A stretch of 64,000 bases of DNA, from contig OZ024741.1 in NCBI GenBank assembly GCA_964016885.1, positions 221,960,001 to 222,024,000 on the forward strand. The letters are read 5' to 3'. Every line of letters starts with the position of its first letter. Positions within the stretch are counted from its first letter, which is position 1. Of the stretch, positions 1,196-55,139 are shown one piece after another. A model generated the notes under the pieces. That model was given only the letters and a program-made list of their open reading frames with translations, ran no database searches and was not told where the DNA came from. The DNA is from Eledone cirrhosa (Eukaryota). A program made the position numbers and the translations under genes.

Positions 1196-2647
1196 TTAGG
1201 GTATAACGTGGGGCTGTAATACAGGAAAGTTGTGTGCAATTTATGTTTACAAGCCGAAATTGCCTCAGATTTTTTGTTTAAGATGTGGTCTGTGGCGTAG
1301 AGTATTTCCAGGGCCTCAGAGGTCACATGGTCTTTTATTTCCGTTATACGATCTAGCCCTAGCTAGGATCTCCCAGTGTAACTTATATTGGGTGTGGTTG
1401 TCTTTTAGACTCCAGATATAAGCTGAAAGTGACGTCATATTCCTTCTTAGAGGGTAACGAAAAGAATGGGTATGCAAGTAAAGACGCTGCTTGAATCTAT
1501 TGGCGGTTAACCCTATGTAGGCCCTACGGGATGTGGGTGTTTCAACCTTACATTTCTAGACAATGTTACTAGAGAGGCTTTTCCCGGATAGGGGGCACTC
1601 AACCCGATTCCTACAATTACAGTATGTACTAACTACAGGGTTGCACGTGTTCCTACGGCTAGGTCGTTTAGCTAAATTTGAAGCTGTGATGTTATGTGCA
1701 AGGTTAGGAGTCGTAGAGTAAGAAATTTTAATAGTATTTCTATTAAAAATGTTACTATATTTATGTGAAGGGGGAAAATGCTTCGTAATAAGGGAAAGAA
1801 AGATCTTAGCTAATGGAGTGGCCACCTCCGTATTATATGGTGGGTTATACCAACAAATGCGACGGGATCTATTTCTTCTAGGTCTATTTTCGTACTCTGT
1901 ATATGCTACCTTATCGACAAATCCACTCCGAGCAAGAGCTTCATTGTAATAAGTGGAATGGTCGTTGAAAATATGCTCGTTAGTAGATAGACGGGAAAGC
2001 CTCAACGAAACGTTTCTTACCAGGTTCTTGGTTATGCTGGCAGGATGGTTGGAATGCTTACTTATGTAATTAAGCGTATCATTCGGCTTTCTATACGGGT
2101 AATACAACCCATTCAATAAGTTCAGGGTAACGTCGAGGTAATTAACGACCGAGAGATTGGCCTCAACCTGTATAGAGAGGTTGAAGCCTTTAAAGAAGGC
2201 TGTAAGTTCTTTTCTGAACCTGTCGCAAGCACGTGTCCCGCACTTAGTCATGGTCAAAAAACCATCGTCACGGCACAAACCACCGCCCGCGTTGGGGAAT
2301 TCGTCCTTGATAGAGAAAAGGAAAAGGCCGATAAGATCAGTAACCTCCGCAGAATCGCTGGCGCCCATACTCACGTTGAATGGGGTACTATTGAATTTTT
2401 TAATCCAAATAGAGTCGTCGAAATTAATCACCGACTTACGGGCATAGAGGATGACATCAACTTCGAAATCCTTAACCACTGTGAGTGTTTTAGCGAAATT
2501 GATAGCTCTAAGGAGAAGTGGTAAAGTGATGGAGGAGTAGTAATTGTTGATGTCGAATTGGATAAAACGGCAATGTTCCTTGTTGCATATGCCATTGAAC
2601 CAATCAATCACCGCGAAAGAATTGTTCCACAGTGCAAGAGGGGCCAA
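1196..2647 (-). mobile_element. Penelope-like retroelement, 5'-truncated (RT + GIY-YIG endonuclease), pseudogenised
   Basis: ORF 1556-2647 has PLE RT motifs (FIQFDI, MGASDSAE, RDDG, NYLDVTL, YRKPN, SNHP, WYNPPY, CNC). Reading through the stop at 1556-1558 gives IV*KCKV..RAYIGLTANRFKQR..LSAYIWSLK, a GIY-YIG domain. Confidence 0.9.
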
Positions 2648-3443
2648 ACTTCTAATTTCTGGTATAATTCTATCAAGATAGCCTTCTTTGGTATTATGAT
2701 TAGATTGGTATTTTAACCATCTTTTGATCTTATATTATTTATACTCCAATCCTACAAACTGTAGAGTGCTACTTATCCGATATTTGCATTGCTTTATTGT
2801 GCTACAATAAAACTCACCTCCTACATTATATATATATATATTCACTCACATATATATATATGTACACACACACACATTCAACACAGAAAGAATATATATA
2901 TTTTTTTTAATTTAACTTAAAATCAACAGATTCAACACACGTTTTTTACTATGAAAAATAGTCTAACAAGCTGGGTATGTAAACCCCTGAAAACAGAAAA
3001 AAAGTGGACAGTGTCGTCTGAGGGACTCATGCTCACACCTGCTGTATACTAGAATGCTGTGCTTACGATTTGCTTCTAAGAAAGGCTAGAGAATTGTTCC
3101 ATTATTTTAAGCCTTATTGGCTGAGATTAACTTTGCCTTCATCCTTACAGGGTCGATAAAATAAAGTACCACTAATGCACTGGGTAATAGCTGGCCTTGT
3201 GCCAAAAGTAGAAGTAATTATTTTAAACCTTATCCATTGGCCAGTACATAAACAAACAATCTATATTTAGAAATCTTGAATAGCTTATGGCAGTGGTCGC
3301 CAACCTTTCTAAAACCGAGGAACCTTCTAAATATTTTGAATTCTTCACGGAACCTATACAATACAAAACTTTTCAAAAAAAAATAATAAAGTATTTATTT
3401 ATTTTAGTGTTTCATGCGTGTGTATGTAATCGAACACAATTAA

Positions 3444-5339
3444 CTAGTGGCTTTTCTGCTGCTGCGCCTCATCAGTGAGTTTAGAAAATCGAGGTTCAAC
3501 ACTAGTTAATGCCAGTCTCATACACTCGTCAATTGCTGACAGTTTATTCCTCTTCTTTGTGCAGATTTCTACCAACTGCGAAAACCCTTTTTCGCACAAG
3601 TAACTAGATGGGAATAAAGTCAAATATTTCAATGCAAGTTGGCTGATTTTATTAAACTCCCCAATCAAGAATAAGTCGATCCATAGTCCTTTCTTTCTGC
3701 TTTCGAATATCACTTTCAGGTCTTCGTTTGAATTCAAATCCATCGACTGATGTAAGCATTGTGCAGGTAGTAAATTTTTACAATTTCCAGCGTCATTTTC
3801 TGACACTAACTGCTCGATCTCGGTGAACGGGGTTTTTATCCATAAATTTCCGCTAACAATATCTTTTTCCATCAAGTCAAAATAATCTGAAAAACTTGTG
3901 GAAAGCAATTTTAAATGAGAAAGAATAATCTTCTTTAGACTGCTGGAGTCAAAATCTTCTCTCTTTTTAAGTTCTATTTCAAGGTTTGAAAGTAATGAGT
4001 AATTGTCCGATTCAATTCTTTTTATAAAGATGTTTAATTTTGATTGAAAATATGTAATAAAATTGATTGAAGTAAAAATATCTGCATTGTTACCCTGAAG
4101 ACACTTATTTAGTTTGTTCAGTTCACCAAAAATGTCTACTAAATAAGCGAGTTGCACATTCCATTCATTGGTTTCTAATACACTTGCTCTTTCATCATTC
4201 TGTTTTTTTAGAAAAACTATTATTTCTTCTCTCAGTTCAAAAACTCTCTTCATAGCATCCCCAAAAGACAGCCAACGCACATCATTGTTCAATAACAATC
4301 TATTATAATTACTTCCAGAAGATTCACAAATAGATTCAAACATTCTAGAATTTTTTGCTCTTGCATGGATCAAATTGATAATTTTGACAATGTTTTTCAG
4401 CTGGTCATTTAATATTTGAGTATCTCTGTCTTTGAATTTTTTTTAACACCAAACCTCTCGATGAATCATACAATGATTTGAAATACAATTTGGGGTCTAT
4501 TCTTTAATTTTTGCAATCAAACTAGAATTTTTACCAGTCATTGCAGCTGCTCCATCTGTTGTTATTGAAGTCAACTTGCTCCAAGATACATCATTTTTTA
4601 AAAAATACTCTTCAATTTTATTGAATATATCTTGACCTTTAGTTGTGATGTCTAATACCAGACAAAACAAATACTCTTCTACTAATTCTTTTTTATCAAG
4701 GTCTACAAACCGTACATAGCAAATTAATTGAGCCTTGTTATTAATATCCGTAGTTTCGTCCACTTGCAGACCAAAACATGTGATTTTCTTTAGTGCAGTT
4801 AGTATCTGATTTTCTATATCTGAAGAAATATCAATTATCCTTCTTTTTACAGTATTTGCTGACAATGGTAACTGGCTTAATTTTTCTTTGTCCTTAATAC
4901 TGCAGCTTTCAAAAAGATTCTCTGTAGCAATGTTTATACTTAGCAGAATTAACTGTTCTAATGTAAATGGTTTCTTGTTTTTACCAATCAAATGTGAAAT
5001 CTCAAAAGATGTTCTTGTTAAAGCTTTATTTCTATCTGACTTTTTACAAAACAAGTCATACATATTAGCTTGTGATTTTTTTATGTTGTTTTTCAGCGAA
5101 GTAAAGTATTCCAGTGACTTGTTTTTATCATTGGTGTGATTAGTATCAAGGTGTCTTTTAAGTTTTGCAGGATTTAAACAGCTATTTGATAGAACTTTTG
5201 AACATAGCAAACACATGGGCTGATCTGGTGTATCTTTTTTAGTGTCAGCTTTTTGAAATCCATATCTAACATAATCATCACACCACTGTCTAACCTTACT
5301 GCTGGTATCTAACTTCAGCTTCTTTGCAGTAGACATCAT
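3444..5339 (-). pseudogene. Buster/ZBED8-like hAT transposase, interrupted by one stop and one frameshift
   Basis: BED finger (CLLC..LKRHLDTNH), DETTD, TDGAAAMTG, HCMIHRE just after the stop at 4497-4499, VRWLS, and SSYLCEKGFS dimerisation motif. ORFs 4497-5339 and 3444-4373. Confidence 0.93.
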
Positions 5340-5905
5340 ATCAATGTTATTTATCTACAGTTAACATTTTTTAATATGACATTAATAAACAATAGAAATT
5401 AAGTTTTTTTAATTACAAAAAGTACTTAAATTAACTTTGGCGATATCCAATTTTAGCGGCATTTAGGCCGCTTACTTCAATGTATGAGGCGATTCCAACA
5501 AATTTACATTCCCCGTTTTTTTTTAGCCGTTAAAAGAAATATAGATTTTTTTTTTTTTTTTTTGCGATTTATTAGAGAGGGGGGGGGGGTGCTCCCTTCT
5601 TCTCTTACCTGTACAAGCCGATATAGAGAGATGGCCCACATACACGGGCCATTATTGCTACTTTCACCCATCTTTCATGGAATTGGCTGGGACTGAGTGC
5701 CTTTTTCTCCAAGAGGACCATTTGTTGGCCGGCGACATATCCCCACAGTTTCCTCGTTGCAAACGCATCTGGGACATTTCTTTTCCAAGGGGTTTCCGTC
5801 CCGGAATCCGTGTCTGTAGAGCCTTTCCCGAACGGGCAGGGCCCCTCGGTATAATATTAAGTATTAGTGGTTGTAATAAAAATGCAATCAAAATGTAATA
5901 AATAC

Positions 5906-6041
5906 CTTCACTGATTTCTTTCCTTATATTATCAACAGAAGTTGGTATGTCACCCAAAGTTCGCTTTGTATGTTCCCGAATAGCAGTGAATTTTGATAAA
6001 ATTGTTTCTAATTCCTTCTCCACAGTAAGACAAATATCCAT
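5906..6041 (-). pseudogene. RMND5: Captured RMND5/GID2-like first coding exon (left-arm copy)
   Basis: MDICLTVEKELETILSKFTAIREHTKRTLGDIPTSVDNIRKEISE resembles the RMND5A/B N-terminus as recalled (MDQCVTVERELEKVLHKF..). It ends at a phase-1 AG|GTATTT donor followed by AT-rich intron-like DNA. Confidence 0.78.
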
Positions 6042-6258
6042 GTGTAGTTGAAGAGGATAAGTAGGAAAGAACAGTCATTTAAATTTACAGATGTGGTGTT
6101 TGGCAGGGTTTGAGATATATAGAAAAATAATTATTTACAGAAAAAGAAAATAATAATAAAGAATTATTATAATTTTTTTAAAGATTTATATCTTTTGGGA
6201 CTTTTGGAAGCAAATTTTAAACTGTATATCGCAACAATAAAAAAGAAAAAATATTTCT

Positions 6259-6499
6259 TTAAACAATATATTGTTCCGATATACAGTTTAAAATCTTTGG
6301 GAAACATCTACCGTCTCCACTCATAAAGCTGTCATTTCGCCACCGCCACATGAATTCATTCAAATATGACTGAAACATGGGTCGGCTAGTGCCGTTTATT
6401 TATTTATTTTTTTTTTTTGGCATGAGACCAGAGTCCTTCAATATGTTGGGTATGTGTTCCTGATACCGGATCAACAAAATTTAGTGAATGATTCACTGT
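6259..6499 (-). pseudogene. C-terminal remnant of a Merlin (IS1595/ISXO2-like DDE) transposase
   Basis: Manual translation: [29 protein letters not shown], then a frameshift in a poly-A run, then GTSRPMFQSYLNEFMWRWRN..CFPKILNCISEQYIV*. VNHS-FVDP-HTQxIE and YLxEFxWR are Merlin/IS1595 signatures. Confidence 0.9.
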
Positions 6500-6756
6500 A
6501 TATTAATATAAGTTTCACTTTATGAATTTCAGTTTAAATATTTTTTTCTTTTTTATTGTTGCGATATACAGTTTAAAATTTGCTTCCAAAAGTCCAAAAA
6601 GATATAAATCTTTAAAAAAATTATAATTCTTTATTATTAATTTCTTTTTCTGTAAATAATTATTTTTCTATATATCTCAAACCCTGCCAAACACCACATC
6701 TGTCCATCTGTAAATTTAAATGACTGTTCTTTCATACTTATCCTCTTCAACTACAC

Positions 6757-6892
6757 ATGGATATTTGTCTTACTGTGGAGAAGGAATTAGAAACAATTTT
6801 ATCAAAATTCACTGCTATTCGGGAACATACAAAGCGAACTTTGGGTGACATACCAACTTCTGTTGATAATATAAGGAAAGAAATCAGTGAAG
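6757..6892 (+). pseudogene. RMND5: Captured RMND5/GID2-like first coding exon (right-arm copy)
   Basis: Same 45-codon peptide as the left copy. 136 nt from ATG to the GAAG|GTATTT donor at 6893. Confidence 0.78.
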
Positions 6893-9800
6893 GTATTTAT
6901 TACATTTTGATTGCATTTTTATTACAACCACTAATACTTACTATTATACCGAGGGGCCCTGCCCGTTCGGGAAAGGCTCTACAGACACGGATTCCGGGAC
7001 GGAAACCCCTTGGAAAAGAAATGTCCCAGATGCGTTTGCAACGAGGAAACTGTGGGGATATGTCGCCGGCCAACAAATGGTCCTCTTGGAGAAAAAGGCA
7101 CTCAGTCCCAGCCAATTCCATGAAAGATGGGTGAAAGTAGCAATAATGGCCCGTGTACGTGGGCCATCTCTCTATATCGGCTTGTACAGGTAAGAGAAGA
7201 AGGGAGCACCCTCCTCTCTAATAAATCGCAAAAAAAAAAAAAAAAAAATCAATCTATATTTCTTTTAACGGCTAAAAAAAAGGGGGAATGTAAATTTGTT
7301 GGAATAGCCTCAAACATTGAAGTAAGCAGCAACTGCAGCAAGTAAGCGGCATTTAGGCCGCTAAAATTGGATATCGCCTTAACTTTAATTTTAGATATTT
7401 GGAAAAACTTAACTAGTTAAAGAAAAATTTTAATTTTTAAAATTTGAAATTTCTCCATATTAGGATGGCAAACATATTATTTAAAGTCTTATAATAATAT
7501 TAAAATATTAGGGGTTACTGAAAAAGGTGCAAATTTATAAACAACTATAAGAAATTTTTTTCAGAGTCCAGCACTTCCTGCATATACTTCTTTATGGTCG
7601 TATTTAATATTATTGGTAATGTAAATATATTTAAATATCCGCCATACTAAAAGGTGCAAAAAATGCAAATCAGCTGATAGTGTAGATGTGACGATGGTAT
7701 TGGAAATTAATTCAGATATCTTCTATCTATTTTGACTCAAAGTTAGATATAATATAAGAAGGCTTTAAGGCTGCGTTAAACATATATTAGATTGGAACAA
7801 ATAAAGTTTAGTCAAATGTTTGTGTACATATATATTTATTGTATGAAGTAATTTCTCAATTGTGAATGCAGATGTCATCAAATGAATACATAATTGTGTG
7901 GCAAAGTTTATAGTGTATGCATGGAATACAAAATTACCTTTGTTAGTAGTCGAAACTTTACAGGCGTTATATTTTCTGTACAAAGTACAACAGAATGTAA
8001 CGTGTTCTTATTTAGAATTGTCTGTGGAACTGGATGCATGTTGAAAACGACTAGTAAGCGAGTTCACTCTGTGAGGAAACTTTAGGCGACTTTAAAGCTT
8101 TTGTGAGGACAGCAGATTAAAACGTGTTCGCTATTGAAAACATTCTACTGAACTTACGTTGTGAGAACAGCGAACTGACCCTGCCTCTTGGCTGAGAGAC
8201 CTCGCTGAACTGAAGTTTTCAGTTTAAAGTTATGCTGTCATCGACCAACATTTGCTTGTTCATGATTGGTCAATTTCTAAGTTCAATTAGTGTATTATCA
8301 GTAGTAGTCAAATCCTCGGAATTCAGAAAACTATGTCTTTCCAAGAATTGATGTGAAATTGAAAGTATTCAATTTCCACGAATCCCAGAACAGTATTTTT
8401 CTGCTAATTCAAGTGAGAAACTGAAAGTAGTGTTTTCCACGAATTGGAGTGGAGAACCTATGTACACTACAATAGTACTCGTTCATTTATACATTGCACC
8501 TTTGGCATTTTCTTTGCACCTTTTTCAGAAAACCCAAAATATTAATGGTAATGTAAATATTTATTTTTTTAAGGAACCCGGAGTTTGTTTTACGGAACCC
8601 CAAGGTTCCGCGGAACCCATGTTGGCGACCACTGGCTTATGGGACGTCACCAGGGGCTTATATGTCCACCATGTTTGATTATTTTTCATAGTAAAAAACG
8701 TGTGTTGAAGCTGTGAATGAACCAGAACGCAATTTTGTAGAAAATAAATATCATTGAATTAAATAAAATAAACTGCAAAATGAAATATGTTGGTGCAAGT
8801 TTGTATAATTTGCATGTCAAAAATGTAGTATCCCATAAACATACATCATCACCATTTAATGTTTATTTTCCATGTGCATGGATTAGCAGAGTTATCCCAC
8901 TCTGAGACTAGATAGGTCAGATGACTGTCTCATATGTTCTATTCTGACATGGTTTCTGTGGCTGGATGCCCTTCCTAATGCCAACTACTTCACAACATGT
9001 ACCAAGTGTGTGTTTATTGCAGCCCTGTCACTACCTTTTTACAGGGTAGACCAGGTGATTTTTATCATGGCACCAGCACTACCACTTCACAAAGTGGACT
9101 GGTTGCATTTTATTATCACACCAACACTACCATTTATTGATACTAAGGTGTTATATTGTGTCATCCTCAGCCAAACTGGGAAGGTAGTCATGAGAGTGGG
9201 GAAGATGAGAGCATGTTGGGGGAAGGGAGACAAGATATTTTTGCTTGCCAATGCAGGGGTGTATATATTGACAGATACATTACAAAATATGTGTATGCAC
9301 ATAGACTAGCAACAAACTGTGTGATGAAAATTTTGACTCCAAGAAATAAATGAATAGTGTATGTGAATTTGATAGAAAAGTTCTATCAATATTCTTTGTA
9401 ATGGAAATTGTGGTTACTCCCACATCAGAGGAAATTTGACACTTACACCAGAGTTGTCTAAATGTAAGTGTCAAATTACAAATGATGTTACAGCATATTA
9501 TTTTGGTTCACTAATAATATCTAGGCGATATTTAAAGGCAGCGTTGCATGTATTTTGTATTTCATAGAAATCTGGCATAGTTAACCTTTTTTTTTTTTTG
9601 TAACCTCTAGGTTTTAGGTTTCGATATCTATTTCTAACTATAACATTTTTTATACTAACCTGGCTCTGGTTCTATGAAATATCATTCCAAATTTGAAAGG
9701 GTTCCAATTTAAATTAAATCCTTCCAACATGATTTTCTATGAGAACCATAGGTTAAGTTACTTATCTCAGTAATGAAATATTTAATAATTTTTTGTAAAT

Positions 9801-10646
9801 CTTTCAAAATTATTCATTACTCCTTTTGATACCAAACTGGCCAACACCTGCTCTGGTTCTATGAAATAGAATCCTCATTTTAAAAAGTTCTTATTTTAAT
9901 TAAAATCTTCCAACATAATTTTATATAAGAACCATATGTTTATAGCAATATTTTAGTAATTATATAATGACTTCATTAACTCTTAACATCTTGTATAAAA
10001 TATCTGAAAGCAGGTTTGTTAATTCAAATGTTTTTAGTATCATTTTTTCTAAAACTAATGCTGCATATGCATAACAAAGTTGTTAAAAACGTGTAATAAT
10101 TTAACAGAAAATATCTAAAAACGGGTTAGTAGACATAACGGGAAAATTTACAATAAACTAAAGTAAAGGCTTTAATTTTTTAATGTGATGCAGACATAGT
10201 GCTGTTTTATACTTTTGTCATGCTAATGTGGTTTCATGTGGTGTAGGACATTAAAAGTTACTTAAAATTGAGTGTATTTTACTAGAAATATGGTAAAAAA
10301 ATAAGGTTAAGATATTTTATAACTATCGCTTTATACTGAATTATATATGCATGACTATTGAAATTTAATGATATTGTGGTTAAACTTCTTTTTGGTGTTG
10401 GTATCATTCACAATTTTATCACATACATTTTTTTGTTATTTTTTTTTGTTATGACCATGCTGTAAAATGGAGAGGTAGAGAGGGCTCATGAGTCCAGTAA
10501 GACATCCTCTCTAGTGCTGGTGGCATGAATAAAAGCACCCAGTCCATGATGTAAAGTGGCACTGGTGTTAGGAAGGGCATCCAACCAGTGTATCAATGCC
10601 AAAACAATTATGAGCACAGCAACAAATATATAGGAACAACAAAAAT

Positions 10647-13576
10647 ATGAAGACGTCGCATCTCAGAGTTGCAAAGAGACTAGTCGCAGGCAAACATCTT
10701 AGCTATAAGCTTTTCTGGGTAGGTAAGGATGATGGGTTAGGGGGAGTAGGCATTTTCCTGGCTGAGAGATGGATCAATAAGACAATAGAGGTAGTTCGAG
10801 TTAATAATCGAATAATTAAGCTTAGATTAGTTGTAGGCAGGAGACTACTGACAATCATCTCTGCCTATGCTCCCCAAGCAGGCCTAGGCAAAGAAGAGAA
10901 AGACTGCTTTTAAGAGCAACTTTTACAAACAGCCACAATGACAGAGGACGGAGACATCGTTATGCTAGCAGGGGACTTCAATGGTCATGTTGGACAGCTC
11001 AGGATGGTTACACTGGGGTACATGGTGGGCACGGTTACGGCTCAAGAAATGAAGAAGGAGTGAGACTTCTTGAATTTTGTGATGCAAGTTCACTGACTAT
11101 TTGCAACACTAACTTCCAGAAACCTGCCAACCACCTAATAACCTACAAATCAGGTGAGCACATAAGCCAGATTGACTTCTTACTAGTTAGGCAGCGGGAC
11201 AGGCAGATAGTGTCAAATACCAAGGCATACCCTGGGAAAGAATGTACCCCACAGCATAGGTTAGTCGTTAGTGATATCTCAGTAAGCAAGAGATGGAATG
11301 AGACATACAGGAAGGTGTGGAGAAGAAAGGTCTGGAAGCTAAAAGACCTTTCACTAAAATACAAATTTAGGAAAGCCCTTCAAGATGTGTATGACGAAAA
11401 AGAAGACGTATGACATAGATAATAACTGGAATTTCTTACGTGACAACTTACTGCAGGCTACTGATGAAACTTGTGGCTGGAACAGAGCTCCAACCAGACA
11501 GAGAGTGACCTGGTGGTGGAATAGCACAGTAGATAGGCCAATTAGAGAAAAAAGACTAGCATGGAAAGCTTGGAAAAAGGGTGGGAGTAGAGAAGGATAT
11601 ACAGCCGCTAAGAGAAAAGCTAGACGTCAGGTGTACTTAGCATGCAGGGAGGCTGAGAGTAGGAGGTTTATCAATGTTCTGCGACGGAAAGATCAGAGGC
11701 GTGCGGTGTTCCACATTGCAAGGCAGTGTGTCAATGCAAATCAGGATGTTGTTGGAGATAAATGTGTCCGGGATGATGCCGGTGTACTTAGTGTCACGAA
11801 TGATCAGAAAAAAGAGGCCTGGAAATGTCACTATGAGAGACTGATGAATGTGGAGAACGAATGGGAGAGAGAGAAATTACCCTCAGTAGATCCGACAGAG
11901 GGACCAGCTATTGAGATTGACGAATATAGTGTCCAAGAAGTGATTAAGGAAATGAAGAATGGTAAGGCTGCTGGACCGTCGGGGATAGTTGCTGAGATGC
12001 TGAAGGCATCAGGGGACGTAGGCACTAAACTGGTTGCGCGCATCATCAATCAGGCTATATATGGTGGTGTCATACCCAAAGACTGGTGCAGCAGTATTCT
12101 CATAAATTGCTACAAAGGTAAGGGGGATGCTCTGGAGAGGAGCAATTATAGGGGTATAAAACTGATGGATCAGGTTCTGAAAGTGGCAGAAAGGATATTA
12201 GCATAACTAATTAGAGAAAGGATCAAACCAGATGAGATGCAGTTTGGTTTTGTGCCTGGGAAAAGTACAACAGATGCCCTCTTCTTGGTGAGACAATTAC
12301 AAGAGACGTTCTCAGAGAAGAATAAGCCACTATACTTAACCTTTGTTGACCTAGAGAAGGCCTTTGATAGGGTACCCCGATCTGTCCTCTGGTGGTCCCT
12401 AAGGAAACTAGGTGTTGAGGAATGGCTTGTGAGGACAGTGCAAACTTTGTACAGAGGTACTGTCAGTAAAGTCAGGGTAGGAATGGTGTTTAGTGAGGAA
12501 TTCCAGATACAAGTAGGAGTACATCAAGGTTCGGTCCTCAGCCCGCTCTTGTTCATTATAGTCCTCCAAACCATAACAGAGGAGTTTAAGACTGGCTGTC
12601 CATGGGAACTTCTCTATGCTGACAATCTGGTTCTTATAGCAGAATCAGTAGAGGAGCTAGAGAATAAATTCTGGCTATGGAAACAGCAGTTGGAAGCAAG
12701 AGGACTGAGAGTGAACCTAGCTAAGACAAAAGTGTTGATGAGTATAAAAGAGGACAAAACTCTGATTGCGTCAGAGAAATGGCCATGTTCGATATGCAGA
12801 AAAGGAACTGGCATAAATTCTATAAAATGCACACAATGCAGATCCTGGGTACACAACAGATGTAGTGGGATAGCGGGCAAACTAACAGGTAGGGAGAAAT
12901 ACGTATGCAGTAGATGTACAGGGAAATTAGACAGTAGAAGTCACATTGATAGACACATTTTTCAAATGCAGGCGGGTGCTATAGAAGTGGTGGATAGCTT
13001 CCGGTACCTAGGAGATCAGATTAGCATGGGAGGGGGGGTGTTCTGAGGCCATAGTATCTAGAATAAGGATGGGTTGGAAGAAGTTTAGGGATCTGCTTCC
13101 TCTGCTGATGAAGAAGGGTTTCTCCCTGCGTACGAAAGGCCGGTTATATCATGCCTGTGTGAGGAGCGCGATGCTGCATGCTAGTGAGAGATGGGCAGCA
13201 ACTGCAGAGGATATGCGACGGCTGGAGAGAAATGAGGCAAGCATGCTCTGTTGGATGTGCAATGTCAATGGACATCCATGCTGGGTCGTTGAGAGAGAAA
13301 CTGTGTCTGAGAGGGATAGAATGTAGTGTGCGAGAGAGGAGACTGCGGTGGTATGGATATGTGATGTGCATGGAGGATGACTGATGGGTGAAGAAGTGCC
13401 AGGAAATGCCAGTTGAAGGAAGACGTGGTAGAGGTAGACTATGAAAAACATGGGTGGAGATGGTGTGAACAGACCTCAGATCGCTGAAGCTCATGGTGGA
13501 GATGACGAAGGACCATGACAAGTGGAGAGATGCTGTTCTGAATAAGACCCGTCCCACCCTTGCAAGCAGACGTAAA

Positions 13577-31716: not shown

Positions 31717-33738
31717 ATCATCATCATCATCATAAGTCCGCTTTTCCCTGCTTGCAAGGGTGTGACGGGTCTTATTCAGCATCTCTCCACTTGTCACGGT
31801 CCTTTGTCATCTCCACCGTGAAGTTCAGCGATCTGAAGTCTGTTCTCACCACCTCCGCCCATGTTTTTTGTGGTCTACCTCTACCACGTCTTCCTTCAAC
31901 TGGCATTTCCTGGCACTTCTTCACCCATCGGTCATCCTCTATGCGCATCACATGTCTATACCATGTCAGTCTCCTCTCTCGCACACTACATTCTATCCCT
32001 CTCAGACACAGTTCTCTCTGAACATATTCATGCTGGGTCGATCACGCACATTGACATTGCACATCCAACGGAGCATGCTTGCCTCATATCCTGTTGCATA
32101 TCCTCTGCAATTGCTGCCCATGTCTCACTACCAAGCAACATCGCGCTCCTCACACAGGCATCATATAACCGGCCTTTCGTACGCAGGGAGAAACCCTTCT
32201 TCGTCAGCAGAGGACGCAGCTTTCTAAACTTCTTCGAACCCGTCCTTATTCTAGATACTATGGCCTCGGAACCCCCCCCCCCCCTCCCATGCTAATCTGA
32301 TCTCCTAGGTACCGGAAGCTATCCACCACTTCTATAGCACCCTCCTGTATTTGAAAAATGTGTCTATCAATGCGACTTCTACTGTCTAATTTCCCTGTAC
32401 ATCTACTGCATATGTATTTCTCCCTACCTGTTAGTTTGCCCACTATCCCGCTACATCTCTTGTGTACCCAGGATCTGCATTGTGTGCATTTTATAGAATT
32501 TATGCCAGTTCCTTTTCTGCATATTGAACATGGCCATTTCCCTGACAGAATCAGAGTTTTGTCTTAGCTAAGTTCACTCTCAGTCCTCTTGCTTCCAACT
32601 GCTGTTTCCATAGCCAGAATTTATTCTCTTGCTCCTCTACTGATTCTGCTATAAGAACCAGATTGTCAGCATAGAGAAGTTCCCATGGACAGCCAGTCTT
32701 AAACTCCTCTGTTATGGCTTGGAGGACTATAATGAACAAGAGCGGGCTGAGGACCGAACCTTGATGTACTCCTACTTGTATCTGGAATTCCTCACTAAAC
32801 TACATTCCTACCCTGACTTTACTGACAGTACCTCTGTACAAAGTTTGCACTGTCCTCACAAGCCCATTTCTCAACATCTAGTTTCCTTAGGGACCACCAG
32901 ATGACAGATCGAGGTACCCTATCAAAGGCCTTCTCTCGGTCAACAAAGGCTAAGTATAGTGGCTTATTTTTCTCTAAGAACCTCTCTTGTAATTGTCTCA
33001 CCAAGAAGAGGGCATCTGTTGTACTCTTTCCAGGCACAAAACCAAACTGCATCTCATCTAGTTTGACCCTTTCTCTAATTAATTGTGCTAATATCCTTTC
33101 TGCCACTTTCATAACCTGATCCATCAGTTTTATACCCCTATAATTGCTCCTCTCCAGAGCATCTCCTTTACCTTTGTAGCAATTTATGAGAATACGGCTG
33201 CACCAGTCTTTGGGTATGACATCACCATATATAGCCTGATTGATGATGCGTGCAACCAGTTTAGTGCCTACGCCCCCTGATGCCTTCAGCATCTCAGCAA
33301 CTATCCCCGATGGTCCAGCAGCCTTACCATTTTTCATTTCCTTAATCGCCTACCCTATATTCGTCAATCTCAATAGCTGGTCCCTCTGTCGGATCTACTG
33401 AGGGTAATTTCTCTCTCTCCCATTCGTTCTCCACATTCATCAGTCTCTTAGAGTGACATTTCCAGGCCTCCTTTTTCTGATCATTCCTGACTCTAAGTAC
33501 ACCGGCATCATTCTGGACACATTTATCTCCAACAACATCCTGATTTGCATTGACACACCGTCTTGCAATGTGGAACACCGCATGCCTCTGATCTTCCCGT
33601 CGCAAAACATTCGCAAACCTCCTACTCTCAGCCTTCCTGCGTGCTATGTACACCTGACGTCTAGCTTCTCTCTTAGCGGCTGTATATCCTTCCCTACTCC
33701 CACCCTTTTTCCAAGCATTCCATGCTAGTCTTTTGTCT
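31717..33738 (-). mobile_element. RTE LINE, 5'-truncated, same family as 10647-13608
   Basis: Translations nearly identical (KNGKAAGPSG, QFGFVPGKSTTDA, ELLYADN). Confidence 0.95.
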
Positions 33739-34044
33739 CTATATATATACATTTTCTGTTTCCCATCAAGGTTATTAGGTTATCCTTGTCAATACCAGTG
33801 TCTCTTGTTATGGTATCTTGGTATCTAACTCTTCTGGTAGAAGAGATCTCCCGCAACAATAGGTCTGAAACCATCTCCTCTTTTGCATGGAAGCAGTGTC
33901 CACCAAACTTTGTACAACATTCAATCAGTTGTGCACTTACTGAGATTTCTCCATATACCTGATGAAGCATGGGATGGGTCTGCCAGGGAATATTTTTACC
34001 CTTTCTCAGAAGGGTAGGATAACATCCATCTAAACGGCTCTGTA

Positions 34045-37988: not shown

Positions 37989-39252
37989 TAGAGAGGTTCT
38001 TAGAGAAGAATAAGCCACTATACTTAGCCTTTGTTGACCGAGAGAAGGCCTTTGATAGGGTAACCCGATCTGTCATCTGGTGGTCCCTAAGGAAACTAGG
38101 TGTTGAGAAATGGCTTGTGAGGACAGTGCAAACTTTATACAGAGGTACTCTCAGTAAAGTCAGGATAGGAATGGAGTTTAGTGAGGAATTCCAGATACAA
38201 GTAGGAGTACATCAAGGTTCGGTCCTCAGCCCGCTCTTGTTCATTATAGTCCTCCAAACCATAACAGAGGAGTTTAAGACTGGCTGTCCATGGGAACTTC
38301 TCTATGCTGACGATCTGGTTCTTATAGCAGAATCAGTAGAGGAGCTAGAGAATAAATTCTGGCTATGGAAACAGCAGTTGGAAGCAAGAGGACTGAGAGT
38401 GAACCTAGCTAAGACAAAAGTGTTGTTGAGTAGAAAAGAGGACAAAACTCTGATTCCGTCAGGGAAATGGCCATGTTCGATATGCAGAAAAGGAACTGGC
38501 ATAAATTCTATAAAATGCACACAATGCAGATCCTGAGTACACAAGAGATGTAGCGGGATAGCAGGCAAACTAACAGGTAGAAGTCGCATTGATAGACACA
38601 TTTTTCAAATGCAGGAGGGTGCTATAGAAGTGGTGGATAGCTTCCGGTACCTAGGAGATCAGATTAGCATGGGAGGAGGGTGTTCCGAGGCCATAGTATC
38701 TAGAATAAGGACGGGTTGGAAGAAGTTTAGGGAGCTGCTTCCTCTGCTGACGAAGAAGGGTTTCTCCCTGCGTACGAAAGGCTGGTTATATCATGCCTGT
38801 GTGAGGAGCGCGATGCTGCATGGTAGTGAGACATGGGCAGCAACTGCAGAGGATATGTGACGGCTGGAGAGAAATGAGGCAAGCATGTTCCGTTGGATGT
38901 GCAGTGTAAATGTGCGTGAACGACCCAGCATGAATGTGTTGAGAGAGAAACTGTGTCTGATGGGGATAGAATGTAGTGTACGGGAGAGGAGACTGAGGTG
39001 GTATGGACATATCATGCGCATGGAGGATGACCGATGGGTGAAGAAGTGCCAGGAAATGCCAGTTGAAGGAAGATGTGGTAGAGGTAGACTACGAAAAACA
39101 TGGGCGGAGGTGGTGAGAACAGACCTCAGATCGTTGAAGCTCACGGTGGAGATGACGAAGGACCGTGACGAGTGGAGAGATGCTGTGCTGAATAAGACTC
39201 ATCCCACCCTTGCAAGCAGGGAAGAGCGGACGTAAAATGATGATGATGATGA
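37989..39252 (+). mobile_element. RTE LINE, 5'-truncated, same family as 10647-13608
   Basis: AFVDREKAFD, GVHQGSVLSP, intact YADD, GAT tail. Confidence 0.95.
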
Positions 39253-45351: not shown

Positions 45352-46086
45352 GTACACATTATATTCCTTTATAGTTTCATTCTTTTAACTGTGTCAAGTC
45401 ATGTGCTGAAGTTATGCTGGGGCAACACCATATGTATAAGGATGTTTTAATATGAACATCTATTGTTATAGCTAATCTCAGAATTAACATATGTTAGGAA
45501 CATATGTAAGTGAAATAATCCCCCCCCCCCCCCCCCCTTCCCCGGTCAAGTGAGAAGTCAGGAACTGCAATTATATAGTCTGTGATGACCCAACCAACCC
45601 TTGCAAGCAAGGAAAAGGGACATTAAATGATGATATGTGTGTATCTGGTTTTTCGATAGATACACCGTATCCCTTTTATTGTAAGAAGTGAATAAAAGAG
45701 TTTAATACATTGCCTCAAAAAGTGATTGTGATGATGTATGAGTTAAGGGCACCCTGTCATAGAAACCATGTCAAACAAAGGGTTGAGAGGACTCTTTTGT
45801 TGTGTCAAAACACAACCCCCTTTCTGTTGAACTGTTGCAAATATATTTAACTCTGTAAAATGGTTGGATATTAGGAAATTCATTCAGCTGTAGAAACCAT
45901 TTCAAAACTGGTATGTATGTAAACCAGATGTGGTCCCTGACCTATCTGGGAGGACAGCAGCTCTGATTAATTACTGTCCAACCCATGCAGCGATTTTCAT
46001 TGAGCAGTTGTGGACAACAAGGTCAACATAATTGCATGGGCTTCTATGCATCTACCATTATATTGATCTAAATTCCTATTATATAT

Positions 46087-47934
46087 AGCATGAATTAAAT
46101 GTCAGACAAAACAACAAGAAATTCTTGAATGCATATATTTACTGGCTGACAACTTGTTTCAGAAACCGAATCATTAATTTGTACATCGATATTATTACCG
46201 ATCCAGAAATCGATAAGCATACTGTGAAAACAAAAGCATGATTCGGTACCCTTTTCAGAGGCAAAAGTAAGGATTTAAATATTAATATATTAATTCAAAA
46301 ATAAATACATATCACTGAAGAAAAAATCCTACAATAAAGGCAATACTTGGTTAGAATTTTTTCACATGTGTATATATGGCAAAAATCCGTTATGCTGTCC
46401 AGGGTCATTGGTGGTTAGAAAGGCCGATGGAAGAATTCAAATGTTACCGGACGTGTGATTGCCAAAGGGGGATAATTAGTAATCAAGGGAGAAAAATTAG
46501 TAGTAATGTATAGCTAAATGTTAACTAATTATAATTTTAGAAAATTGATAATATGGTAAGAAGGGGTAAAAAACTAAATATACATTAGAAATAAAAGATC
46601 CAAATGAAGAGGTTATAAGAAATATATTTGATTATCACTGGATGACGATATGAAGGTCAAATCAGTAAGAATTCACTCTAAAAAAAGAATAAATAATTGT
46701 TTTTACTTTTGGCACAAGGCCAGCAATTACCCCAGTGTATTACTGGTGCTTTATTTTATCGACCTCTGTAAGGATGAAAAGCAAAGTTAACCTCGGCGTG
46801 ATTTGAACTCAGAACGTAAAGAACTGTAATAATATTGATGGCAATTACTTGGAGTGTACTAAAAAACAATTGAAAATAAAGGAAATAAAATAAAATAAGG
46901 TATATATAGATTAAAAGATATGTGCAAATAATAATATATAATATAAGGTTATATTAAAAATGAAAAAATAAAAGAGTCATTAACTACAGATAGGGTTGTA
47001 AGACAAAGGGTCTAGGTTCTACAGTAAAGCAGATACATAAGAAGTGGAGCTAAAATGAAATAGTATTAATATAAGATAGGAGAGGATAAGTAAAATCTGA
47101 AATAAGTAAAGCTTAGATTAGATAGGGGAGGAACAAATAACTAGTTAAAATGTGGAAGTAAGAAGCATGGGTAGAGGACACATATTCAAATATTGTGGAG
47201 GAGAGATAATAAATAAAACTAAATGAACCTAAGTGGGATCAAAAACTCTGTTAGCGAATGAGTATGCCAAATGGTGATAGCAGTTAATCACAATCTCAAT
47301 GTGGTCATTAATTGGGCAGGGTTTAGATAAAGTTATGAAATAAGCTTCAGATAAACATAGATCGCAATGATCCTTAAGTCCTTTGTATGGGGAGGATTTG
47401 GTTAAAATATCCCAAACTAGAGTGTATTCAATATTGGAGAGTTTATATTTACATGTCTAGCTAATGAAGTTGAGGATTTTAAGCTACTATTCCTAAATGT
47501 GTATGAGAATTAAAATGCGTTTTGAAAGGGTTAGCAGTAGCTCCAGTGTAAGTTTTACTGTCTTAGAGGTTTTAACAGTGCATCTATAAACTACATTATT
47601 AGTTACATTTACAGTTAACAGTAGCAGATAGTGTAGGCATAAGTGCAGAACTAAAAGATACTGGTGTCCACATGTGGACAAATTCTAACCAAGTATTGCC
47701 TTTATTGTAGGATTTTTTCTTCAGTGATATGTATTTATTTTTGAATTAATGTTTAAATCCTTACTTTTGGCTCTGAAGAATCATGATTTATTTTCACAGT
47801 ATGCTTATAGATTTCTGGATCGGTAATAATATCGATGTACAAATTAATGATTCAGTTTCCGAAACAAGTTGTCAGCCAGTAAATATATGTATTCAAAAAT
47901 TTCTTGTTGTTTTGTCTGACATTTAATTCATGCT
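46087..47934 (-). mobile_element. 5'-truncated Penelope-like element with inverted pseudo-LTRs
   Basis: Inverted repeats 46087-46370 / 47669-47934. GIY-YIG remnant at ~47250-47610 (NVVYRCTV..TYTGATANPFK..CDLCLSE). SINE inserted at ~46693-46828. Confidence 0.8.
47768..47878 (+). ncRNA. Degenerate hammerhead ribozyme in the pseudo-LTR (mirror copy 46143-46263, minus)
   Basis: TGGCT-CTGAAGA..GAAAC-AAGTT-GTC-AGCCA. Stem II is partly deleted here but retained in the mirror copy. Confidence 0.6.
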
Positions 47935-48494
47935 TTTTAGCTCTGCTTATAATAATTTTGCTAGACATATTTTCTTCGAATTACTCGCTTTGTTCGCTTG
48001 TCTTGCAAACTATATGTATCAAGCACACTAACCTTCTCTCGGCTGGCTTGTAATCTTCTTAACTAATCACTTATCTCTCCTCTTTGATTGGTTTGCTTTA
48101 CCCCATCCACACCGCCCCCTTCTATGTAAAGTTATGTTGGTGCCACACCATCCAGGCCGAAACAAATGAGATCGTGTAGGTGTCACGACAAAAAAACACA
48201 CAGTCCACGATGTAATGTGGCCGTGTAGGCAACACGGTAAAAACCTCCCAGACCCACACTGTAAATGTGGTTGGTGTTAGGAAGGGCATCCAACTGTAGA
48301 AAACCTGCCAGACAGTCCTATGCGAGCAAGACAATCACTCTTGCCTCAAGTGGGAAAACCCCCGTCCAAACCCATGCAAGTGTGGAACACGGACGTTAAA
48401 CGTTGATGATGATGATGATGATGTATATATGATAAAGTTATAGCTGTATAGATACAGAGTGTGTAACTGAGACTGCTCAAATGTATATGAATAC

Positions 48495-53790: not shown

Positions 53791-53949
53791 AACTAATGTT
53801 AGTAATTTTATTCATTGTTAATGCTAACCAAGGTTTGCAAGGGGAGAAATTTGACTTGCGTTTCTAAGAACCACTGGTCTATACAATTCTTGAGGTTATT
53901 GGCTGAAATGTTGACAATTGGGAAGGGATTGAGGTAACCTGGGACAATA

Positions 53950-54590
53950 AAGAGTGGAATGTTATCTGTGGTTGTAATGGGTGGGATGTGATCTGTGATT
54001 GTAATGGGTGGGATGTGATCTGTGATTGTAATGGGTGGGATTGATCTATGATTGCAAGGGGTGGAATGTGATTTGTGATTGTAAGGGGTGGAATGGGATC
54101 TGTGATTGTAAGGGGTGGAATGTGATTTGTGATTGTAAGAGGTGGAATGTGATTTGTGATTGTAAGGGGTGGAATGGGATCTGTGATTGTAAGAGGTGGA
54201 ATGTGATTTGTGATTGTAAGAGGTGGAATGTGATTTGTGATTGTAAGGGGTGGAATGGGATCTGTGATTGTAAGAGGTGGAATGGGATCTTGGATTGTAA
54301 GAGGTGGAATGTGATTTGTGATTGTAAGGGGTGGAATGGGATCTGTGATTGTAAGAGGTGGAATGGGATCTTGGATTGTAAGAGGTGGAATGTGATCTGT
54401 GATTGTAATGGGTGGAATGTGATCTTGGATTGTAAGGAGTTGAATGTGATCTGTGATTGTAAGGGGTTGAATGTGATCTGGGATTATGAGGGATGGAATG
54501 GGATCTGTGATTGTAAGAGGTGGAATGTGATCTGTGATTGTAATGGGTGGAATGTAATCTTTGATTGTAAGGGGTGGAATGTAACCTGGG
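53950..54590. repeat. 27-bp minisatellite, about 24 units
   Basis: Unit GGGTGGAATGTGATTTGTGATTGTAAG with variants; 9-aa periodicity in the ORF track. Confidence 0.95.
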
Positions 54591-55139
54591 TCTATGAGTA
54601 CCACTGGGTTAATGATTCCGTTGGAAATTCAGTTTAACCAAATAACAAAATATTTTGTGTTGATCCATTAACAATGAATTTATTTTGAAATTCCATTAAT
54701 TCTGTGAGAGTAAATGCTATGTAATAATAATATCTAAAAAATCCTTGTTTTTAGTATTCACACTTTTCTGTACGTATCATAAGAGAATACCTGGCTTAGA
54801 TGTTCACCTTTATGTTACCATATTTCTAATAAAAGACTAAATAATTTTGAAAATAATCAAGAATTTGGAGGAATTTACTAATATAATTAAGTTTCTCATT
54901 AAGTTTGTGTTTAGAACCTATCTTAAAAAAAGTTCTTAAGTAAAATTAAGATGGAAGGTTTAAGAAATTCCAATCATGAAAGCAAAAATCTGAAATAAAA
55001 AAAACTTCAAAGTGAAGTTAGCTCAATATGCAAAATAGGAGCTTGTAGAAATTCTATACAGTGTACTAAATGTAAACTATGGATACATGAGATATAGCAG
55101 GATCTAGGGCAGGCTAACAAAGAATATAGGCTATGTATG

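Follow-up and report, generated by a model that had tools for sequence, protein, structure and literature searches.

How does a DNA transposon come to consist mostly of its own mirror image? This question is raised by a 1940-bp element at positions 5439-7378 of a 64,000-nucleotide stretch of the Eledone cirrhosa genome (assembly GCA_964016885.1, contig OZ024741.1, forward-strand positions 221,960,001 to 222,024,000), which was analysed at its full length and is called the window below. A first-pass annotation made from the letters alone had described the element as a foldback derivative of the Merlin superfamily nested in a Buster-type hAT element, and homology of the spacer, the target-site duplication (TSD) and the flanks support all three parts of that description. 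We report that each of its two arms carries a probable first exon of a host RMND5 gene and the 3' end of a long interspersed nuclear element (LINE), and that the arms probably arose when one end of the element was copied over the other.

A non-autonomous Merlin element inserted in a Buster

The element begins with GG at 5439 and ends with CC at 7378, as the first-pass annotation had read them, and the outermost 22 bp of both ends form a perfect inverted repeat. A 19-bp terminal pattern occurs twice in the window, against 0.02 occurrences expected. The predicted 8-bp TSD, TTAACTTT, lies at 5431-5438 and 7379-7386 and is identical at all eight positions, with a chance of about 2e-4 from local composition. 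We aligned contigs from four public sequencing runs (X1, X4, X5 and X6; four of the 12 runs identified, three organisms) over positions 5000-8700. Sequencing depth in these runs is not copy number, and depth ratios are read here as hints; the best-covering run contains 0.48 of the words. Two of the four runs, X4 and X5, contain a joint from 5430 to 7379 that skips 1948 nucleotides with 8 letters that fit either side, which indicates a Buster with a single target copy and without the insert. X1 contains a near-identical joint, 5438 to 7390, with one base different, and a loose end before 7379 that corresponds to the left flank. At 7378, four X4 contigs exit into dissimilar flanks (agreement 0.52), which indicates that this position is a family boundary. 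No contig ties the cargo of the arms to a second flank; contigs across the cargo junctions are deep in X1, and the unlike flanks at 7378 are those of X4. The terminal 22-mer had no match among metagenome contigs.

Between the arms lies a 279-bp spacer, in which a remnant of a DDE transposase had been noticed. All five DDE_Tnp_IS1595 proteins used as tblastn queries matched positions 6262-6499 with E values of 1.7e-13 to 7.8e-19. The remnant still has the block with the last catalytic Glu as well as its natural C-terminus, and it ends where its relatives end; one stop codon and one frameshift, the latter in an A run near 6410, interrupt it. A search with its last 46 residues against 1.84 billion proteins returned 10 matches, of which seven align as Merlin-like C-termini and five pass Pfam PF12762 (DDE_Tnp_IS1595); the three other representative matches (P0006, P0008 and P0010) are repeat proteins and were excluded from alignments. 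In profile searches, as the first-pass annotation had proposed for the spacer, NCBIfam IS1595 gave E 0.0068, a match that falls short of the curated cut-off, and Pfam returned no family for any of seven spacer pieces. A word-index search with the transposase tail among longer proteins gave no match from its one candidate. Among the best 80 of 493 metagenome loci, relatives showed 24-44% protein identity to the query and are too distant to inform; none had long arms, and 28 of the 80 had any inverted repeat, the longest, 123 bp, lying at contig ends. Merlin elements have terminal inverted repeats (TIRs) that begin with 5'-GG and a TSD of 8-9 bp (PMC8101967). The GG ends, the 8-bp TSD and the DDE_Tnp_IS1595-type remnant together place the element in this superfamily, and 5439-7378 is confirmed as a real insertion of a non-autonomous Merlin DNA transposon. 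Its parts, with the surrounding Buster, are as follows.

3291-8634, minus strand: Buster-type hAT host element, with ends CAGTGGTCGCCAAC and 8-bp TSD GCTTATGG
5431-5438, no strand: left TSD copy TTAACTTT, with the empty site in X4 and X5
5439-5545, plus strand: left Merlin terminus; compared with the right terminus it has the 6-nt loop of a hairpin (5461-5466) inverted and a gap of 20 bp
5546-5851, minus strand: LINE 3' fragment, left-arm copy, mirror of 6947-7248; its poly(A) appears as T18 at 5546-5563
5852-5905, minus strand: 54 bp of intron, left-arm copy, mirror of 6893-6946
5906-6041, minus strand: RMND5-like first coding exon, left-arm copy, of 45 codons plus 1 nt and then GT; top PDB match human RMND5A 1-42, E 0.047
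6042-6256, minus strand: inner left arm, with about 48 bp of probable host 5' untranslated region, AT-rich DNA and the downstream strand of a hairpin (6214-6239, where the final 26 nt of the transposase frame recur inverted)
6257-6535 (279 bp), minus strand: spacer with the Merlin transposase remnant, the C-terminal ~80 codons at 6499-6262 and the stop codon at 6261-6259
6536-6756, plus strand: inner right arm, an inverted copy of 6256-6042 that starts at most 3 nt from the hairpin tip (loop 6249-6253 in left-arm coordinates)
6757-6892, plus strand: RMND5-like first coding exon, right-arm copy, from ATG to a G|GT donor, 45 codons plus 1 nt
6893-6946, plus strand: intron piece, right arm, 54 bp, 20% GC
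6947-7248, plus strand: L1/Tx1-like LINE 3' fragment, right arm, with a zinc-knuckle-like piece, an internal deletion near 7050-7057 and an ORF2-like end
7249-7378, minus strand: right Merlin terminus, the abundant form in X1 (bin 7232-7355, depth 11,309)
7379-7386, no strand: right TSD copy TTAACTTT

The arms and the hairpin at which they end

The left arm spans 5439-6256 (818 bp) and the right arm 6536-7378 (843 bp), and together they account for 85.6% of the element, close to the 820-840 bp and 85% first estimated. Aligned to each other they show 796 matches, 13 mismatches and 7 indels; of the 703 alignment columns beyond the terminus, 6 are mismatches. Over their outer 60 bp the two ends are imperfect mirrors, with the 6-nt loop inversion and the 20-bp gap listed above; loop inversion and loss at a small hairpin fit frequent template switching. 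The left-terminus form is nearly absent from X1, where 350.7 of the depth of 352.8 in bin 5372-5495 comes from Buster contigs, and it looks private to the present copy or lineage. Each arm consists of a Merlin terminus of about 110-130 bp, a LINE 3' end and a probable RMND5 exon with 54 bp of intron, and is mostly captured cargo. Internal repetition in the arms is limited to base runs and 2.5 copies of an 11-bp unit, with no tandem array.

A hairpin spans the transposase stop codon (z -9.74, reached in none of 200 shuffles; loop 6249-6253), and the left arm ends at 6256, at a distance of 3 nt from both the stop codon and the hairpin tip. At the start of the right arm the final 26 nt of the transposase frame recur in inverted orientation, and the first part of this arm, 6536-6708, is AT-rich. 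Rfam gave three matches, each far below its gathering score.

Origin of the arms

The left arm comprises everything 3' of the transposase stop codon and the mirror arm is joined directly to the remnant of the gene, which makes copying of the 3' end over the 5' end the simplest reading. We hold with moderate confidence that the 3' end of the element, cargo included, was copied over its 5' end and that copying halted at the hairpin tip. The anatomy on which this proposal draws, namely the stop codon, the hairpin and the cargo in the same orientation, is seen directly, and the RMND5 identity of the cargo is probable from sequence comparison.

Under this proposal, the ancestor would have carried, after its transposase stop codon, the hairpin and then cargo in the same orientation, which comprised the first RMND5 exon with its flanks and the LINE 3' end. 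Mobilisation would have occurred in trans, by a related transposase that binds the 110-130 bp ends; insertion into the Buster with an 8-bp TSD is what the flanks record. In the course of repair or replication, synthesis primed at one of the termini would have run through the 3' region in full and placed a copy of it on the 5' side, until the strand came to a halt at the tip of the hairpin and joined the transposase gene again some 270 bp short of its end. A mirror of the 3' end would in this way have taken the place of the promoter and of three quarters of the gene. The resulting foldback would then have spread, with some copies losing their middle, and the arms of the present lineage would have been re-homogenised by arm-to-arm copying. 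The cargo itself was most likely a passenger. Precedents for such steps exist in other superfamilies, as end replacement gave rise to long TIRs in seven sublineages of mariner MITEs (miniature inverted-repeat transposable elements; PMC4161770) and internal sequence was recruited into the TIRs of Galileo (PMC3573991); the Pack-TIRs of animals are a further precedent (PMC8277862).

The last of these steps bears on changes that the arms have in common. Both arms share a derived base, A at 6796 and T at 6002, at a site where all depth of all four runs and the host-like contig have G, and both share the 33-nt gap at 7087 described below. These two derived changes suggest later arm-to-arm conversion: if the foldback is older than they are, the arms were re-made alike afterwards. 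Conversion would be unneeded if the foldback formed recently in the present lineage.

The proposal is also supported by a contig of X4 (record 10) that links the transposase end to the left arm in another sample, by X1 contigs in which the cargo travels joined, and by record 26 of X6, all described below. Depth in X5 gives a hint in favour of two arms per spacer, as the spacer (139-159) and the arms (250-290) stand near 1:2. Several observations weigh on the other side. Arm depth in X1 is 5-8 times the spacer depth, not twice, and in X6 the depth of the arm contig (2.87) is not above that of the loop contig (3.4), where a library fold-back is possible. If sampled organism A is not the window's species, the changes common to both arms may mark a young subfamily, which would leave conversion unneeded. 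No parent element was seen in the sequences compared. Finally, in the mariner cases described in the accessible text of PMC4161770, the 5' end always replaced the 3' end, which is opposite to the direction proposed here.

An alternative history, which we think possible if unlikely, would start from an autonomous parent that already had TIRs of about 820 bp with the cargo in both; an internal deletion would then have taken three quarters of the transposase gene from its 5' side. Merlin TIRs of 1000 bp are catalogued, for example in zebrafish Merlin-1_DR, and non-autonomous copies arise most often by internal deletion (PMC4161770). Loss of the centre from foldback copies is also suggested by record 26 of X6: this contig has 30-nt reverse-complement ends and a joint from 6045 to 6591 at a 3-nt microhomology, and is possibly the centre of a second, more deleted palindrome from another organism, or, at a depth of 3.4, possibly a library artefact. 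However, a deletion would need to start exactly at the inner edge of one TIR while the other TIR had its end at the tip of a hairpin, 3 nt from the stop codon. Furthermore, tblastn found no further transposase piece in the window below E 0.24, and no autonomous partner there. We retain copying of the 3' end over the 5' end as the preferred history. X1 also contains a joint from 6287 to 6254 (depth 26).

A probable RMND5 exon in both arms

What did the arms capture? Translation of 6757-6892 gave, as the best of 177,635 PDB sequences, residues 1-42 of human RMND5A, aligned from Met1 to Met1, and 12 of the first 18 residues are identical. In X6, a 510-nt contig (record 27) matches 6709-6900 only, with 20 differences in 192 positions (90% identical), and X4 contigs with the same variants exit at 6892, the donor. 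These exon-type contigs match nothing else in the arm and exit at the GT donor or 8 nt past it. Two of the six amino-acid changes listed for them, T13K and I14V, lead to the human residues and raise the agreement to 14 of 18. It is very likely from these comparisons that the X4 and X6 contigs represent the host RMND5 gene and that the exon in the arms is a captured copy. A parental copy of the exon was absent from the window, and the candidate parent was met as contigs in X4 and X6 only. X4 gave the impression of a transcript library, as the contig of the host-like exon is deep and exits at the donor while the Buster is shallow; no RNA run was among those identified, X4 is not recorded as RNA, and we did not count this impression.

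Against the RMND5 identity stand the weakness of the match by itself (E 0.047, 17.2 bits), a word-index search with the exon among longer proteins in which none of 20 candidates held, and the Atlas, where the exon led to unnamed clusters only. The corresponding alternative accepts a foldback Merlin and takes 6757-6892 not to be RMND5, with the likeness due to chance and the 90%-identical contigs of X4 and X6 due to another repeat. In its favour, the letters behind 6892 in X4 mix two contigs (agreement 0.53), and their hand translation does not look like RMND5A. The rank of the match among the PDB sequences, its alignment from Met1 to Met1, the direction of the two variant changes and the exit of the related contigs at or 8 nt after the donor make this alternative improbable.

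The first-pass annotation had also pointed to 125-aa open reading frames (ORFs) of the arms that differ at one residue. The near-identity was borne out for the frames at 6757-7131 (plus strand) and 5667-6041 (minus strand), with residue 62 as the sole difference. As a gene the frame was rejected, as it crosses the GT donor and the LINE junction and has no relatives: it is the 45-codon exon read through into the intron and an out-of-frame LINE fragment. Neither 125-aa ORF was found in the protein collection, and a word-index protein search with a 136-aa frame gave no match among three candidates.

Exon, intron and LINE are joined in X1 contigs (record 4, 6750-6947, depth 799; record 5, 6918-7087, depth 712), which indicates that the cargo is a trait of the family and not a late insertion in the present copy. 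The best repeat that could flank the exon and LINE as a TSD, of 7 nt, was reached in 45% and 66% of 5000 shuffles and is not significant.

As a separate observation on 6893-6953, the retained intron piece contains a CTAAT that resembles a branch site, and an AG lies at 6952-6953 within the LINE. Splicing predicted at these sites would fuse the exon in frame to the zinc-knuckle piece of the LINE, upstream of the LINE poly(A) signal.

The LINE fragment

The LINE fragment ends with AATAAA at 7220 and A19 at 7230-7248. Its depth in X1 and X5 is 10,000-33,000, with loose ends at 6947, 7014, 7050 and 7121, and in the left-arm copy loose ends lie behind 5851 in X1 (7 contigs) and X5 (25 contigs). The far greater depth and the contigs that leave the arm at 6947 and 7050 indicate that the LINE is a separate high-copy family. 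A stretch of 33 nt at 7087 is missing from both arms but present in other copies (X1, depth 849; X6). The Atlas gave a lead to zf-RVT (PF13966; 0.81, with the family on 10% of members). Two results weigh against this assignment, as the piece had no Pfam match, and the zinc-knuckle piece met chance-level matches only in PDB. Hand translation of the loose letters extends the frame RGALPVRERLYRHG...CPRC upstream and downstream and resembles what we take to be the zf-RVT end of an L1/Tx1 ORF2; the L1/Tx1 clade name is likewise our assumption, from sequence motifs.

Continuity of the palindrome

Could the palindrome be an error of assembly, in which two one-armed copies or a fold-back read were joined at the centre? 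In favour of such an error, no contig among the 32 listed pieces, out of a set with 1716 others, bridges the right arm/spacer junction at 6535/6536, none of the 32 spans the element, and the best-covering run contains 0.48 of the words. The left arm/spacer junction was bridged in another sample by record 10 of X4 (6164-6309). The unique flanks nevertheless continue one Buster and rebuild the empty site seen in X4 and X5, and the 13 substitutions, the indels outside base runs (8, 20 and 3 bp) and the agreement of each arm with the family at sites of its own (the left arm at 7313, the right arm at 6197 and at the 8-bp repeat) are unlike a folded-back read, which makes misassembly very improbable.

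The host Buster and other repeats in the window

The Buster transposase, at 5339-3444, is broken by a stop near 4494 and a frameshift near 4443, and the Merlin insertion stands upstream of its start codon, at a distance of 99 bp. Its domains include DUF4371 (E 1.6e-7), zf-BED and a weak Dimer_Tnp_hAT; the name Buster is presumed from end and TSD patterns. X4 contains a deletion derivative of the Buster over 5148-8351, which skips 3202 bp. A second TIR element occupies 7511-8535 in the Buster 5' region, with GGG...CCC ends, a 26-nt inverted repeat (88%) and the 9-bp repeat AAAATATTA on its flanks (7502-7510 and 8536-8544). An X1 contig crosses its left edge at Buster-like depth, and the element seems fixed in that Buster family; its ends are presumably Mutator-like or Merlin-like. 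Within it, 7852-8099 has a depth of about 5,700 in X5 and about 900 in X1, which points to a further repeat inside the nested element. Outside the Buster lies a 64-bp inverted repeat (86%), 2926-2989 and 8651-8714, which is unevenly placed and perhaps marks an older element that the Buster entered.

The window comes from an animal rich in LINEs and microsatellites. A 392-aa frame and a downstream piece at 1316-2734 (minus strand) had no Pfam match; from their motifs we take them to be a Penelope-type reverse transcriptase with a GIY-YIG end. One LINE, which we assume to be RTE-like, is present in three copies (10614-13570, 31777-33741 and 37990-39219) that are 91-98% alike, one of them inverted. 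The window also contains a tandem array with a 27-bp period (53934-54716) and a 153-bp inverted repeat, 46082-46234 and 47787-47939, which is 95% complementary with 1552 bp between its halves and is a possible TIR element.

Significance

What is new in this element is that a probable host exon and the end of a LINE are present twice, once in each arm; palindromic arms in this group are known. If the interpretation is true, this is an animal DNA transposon that acquired the first exon of a host gene as well as a LINE end, duplicated both in its mirror arms and spread through three or more related organisms. The traces of how the arms arose, namely the stop at the hairpin tip and the derived changes common to both arms, would then make it a usable case for foldback formation and for concerted evolution of arms.

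RNA transcribed through the element would form a double-stranded stem of about 800 bp, in which about 190 bp would match the start of host RMND5 at 90% identity and 300 bp would come from an abundant LINE, and arm-to-arm conversion would keep this stem near perfect. That the element is a multicopy 'Pack-Merlin', a mobile hairpin cassette with effects, through small RNAs or editing, on the host RMND5 E3-ligase gene or on the LINE, is a speculation to which we give little credence. As matters stand the element is a structural curiosity, and a hairpin effect at the RNA level is putative.

Comparison with known systems

The first-pass annotation had implied that long foldback arms are novel in Merlin, which overstates the case. 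In S1 Table of PMC8101967, 19 of the 70 Repbase Merlin elements have a TIR size and, by our hand count, two of these TIRs are 1000 bp long, beyond the usual Merlin range of 24-462 bp given in the same source. These two elements, Merlin-1_DR and Merlin-N5_DR of Danio rerio, share with the present one the GG ends, the 8-bp TSD, a DDE_Tnp_IS1595-type transposase and TIRs of about 1 kb (PMC8101967). They differ in that they are more than 4 kb and more than 10 kb long, with tandem repeats near both ends, whereas the arms described here form 86% of 1.94 kb, hold no tandem array and are mostly exon and LINE.

End replacement is likewise known. The mariner MITEs Dromar7, 11, 28 and 36 resemble the present element in that one end replaces the other and long TIRs surround a transposase remnant (PMC4161770). 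They belong to another superfamily, the 5' end replaced the 3' end where here the 3' end would have replaced the 5' end, and captured host DNA is not mentioned in the accessible text of that paper. In Galileo, of the P superfamily, copies with two recombinant TIRs also have TIRs lengthened by internal sequence, and TIR conversion was proposed (PMC3573991). Galileo TIRs, in contrast, are internally repetitive and long in the parent, and the recruited DNA is Galileo's own. The present element has a foldback shape without being of the FB/Galileo type: its inverted repeats are long, and its arms lack the internal repetition of those TIRs.

The order of the cargo recalls mRNA/LINE-1 chimeras, in which a sense first exon precedes a LINE 3' end with poly(A) (bioRxiv 10.1101/2025.02.02.635956). 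In the chimeras the junction tends to lie at a splice site and TSDs flank the insertion, whereas here 54 bp of intron intervene and no significant TSD was found.

The element also resembles the Pack-TIRs of animals, which include Ssk-FB4 and Pack-hAT-N8_XT (PMC8277862), in being a TIR element that probably carries a host gene fragment and is probably multicopy. Multicopy gene-capturing TIR elements are rare in the main animal survey, as four multicopy Pack-TIRs were reported from 100 animal genomes, none listed as Merlin, and the word "Merlin" is absent from the 372-row Pack-TIR list of that source (PMC8277862). The literature searched, outside which lie most subscription papers and Repbase Reports, showed no Merlin whose two arms each contain a host exon. 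In the described Pack-TIRs the cargo lies once between the TIRs, whereas here it is part of both inverted arms (PMC8277862). Judged by its sequence, the element behaves like a multicopy Pack-TIR, for which it is a candidate.

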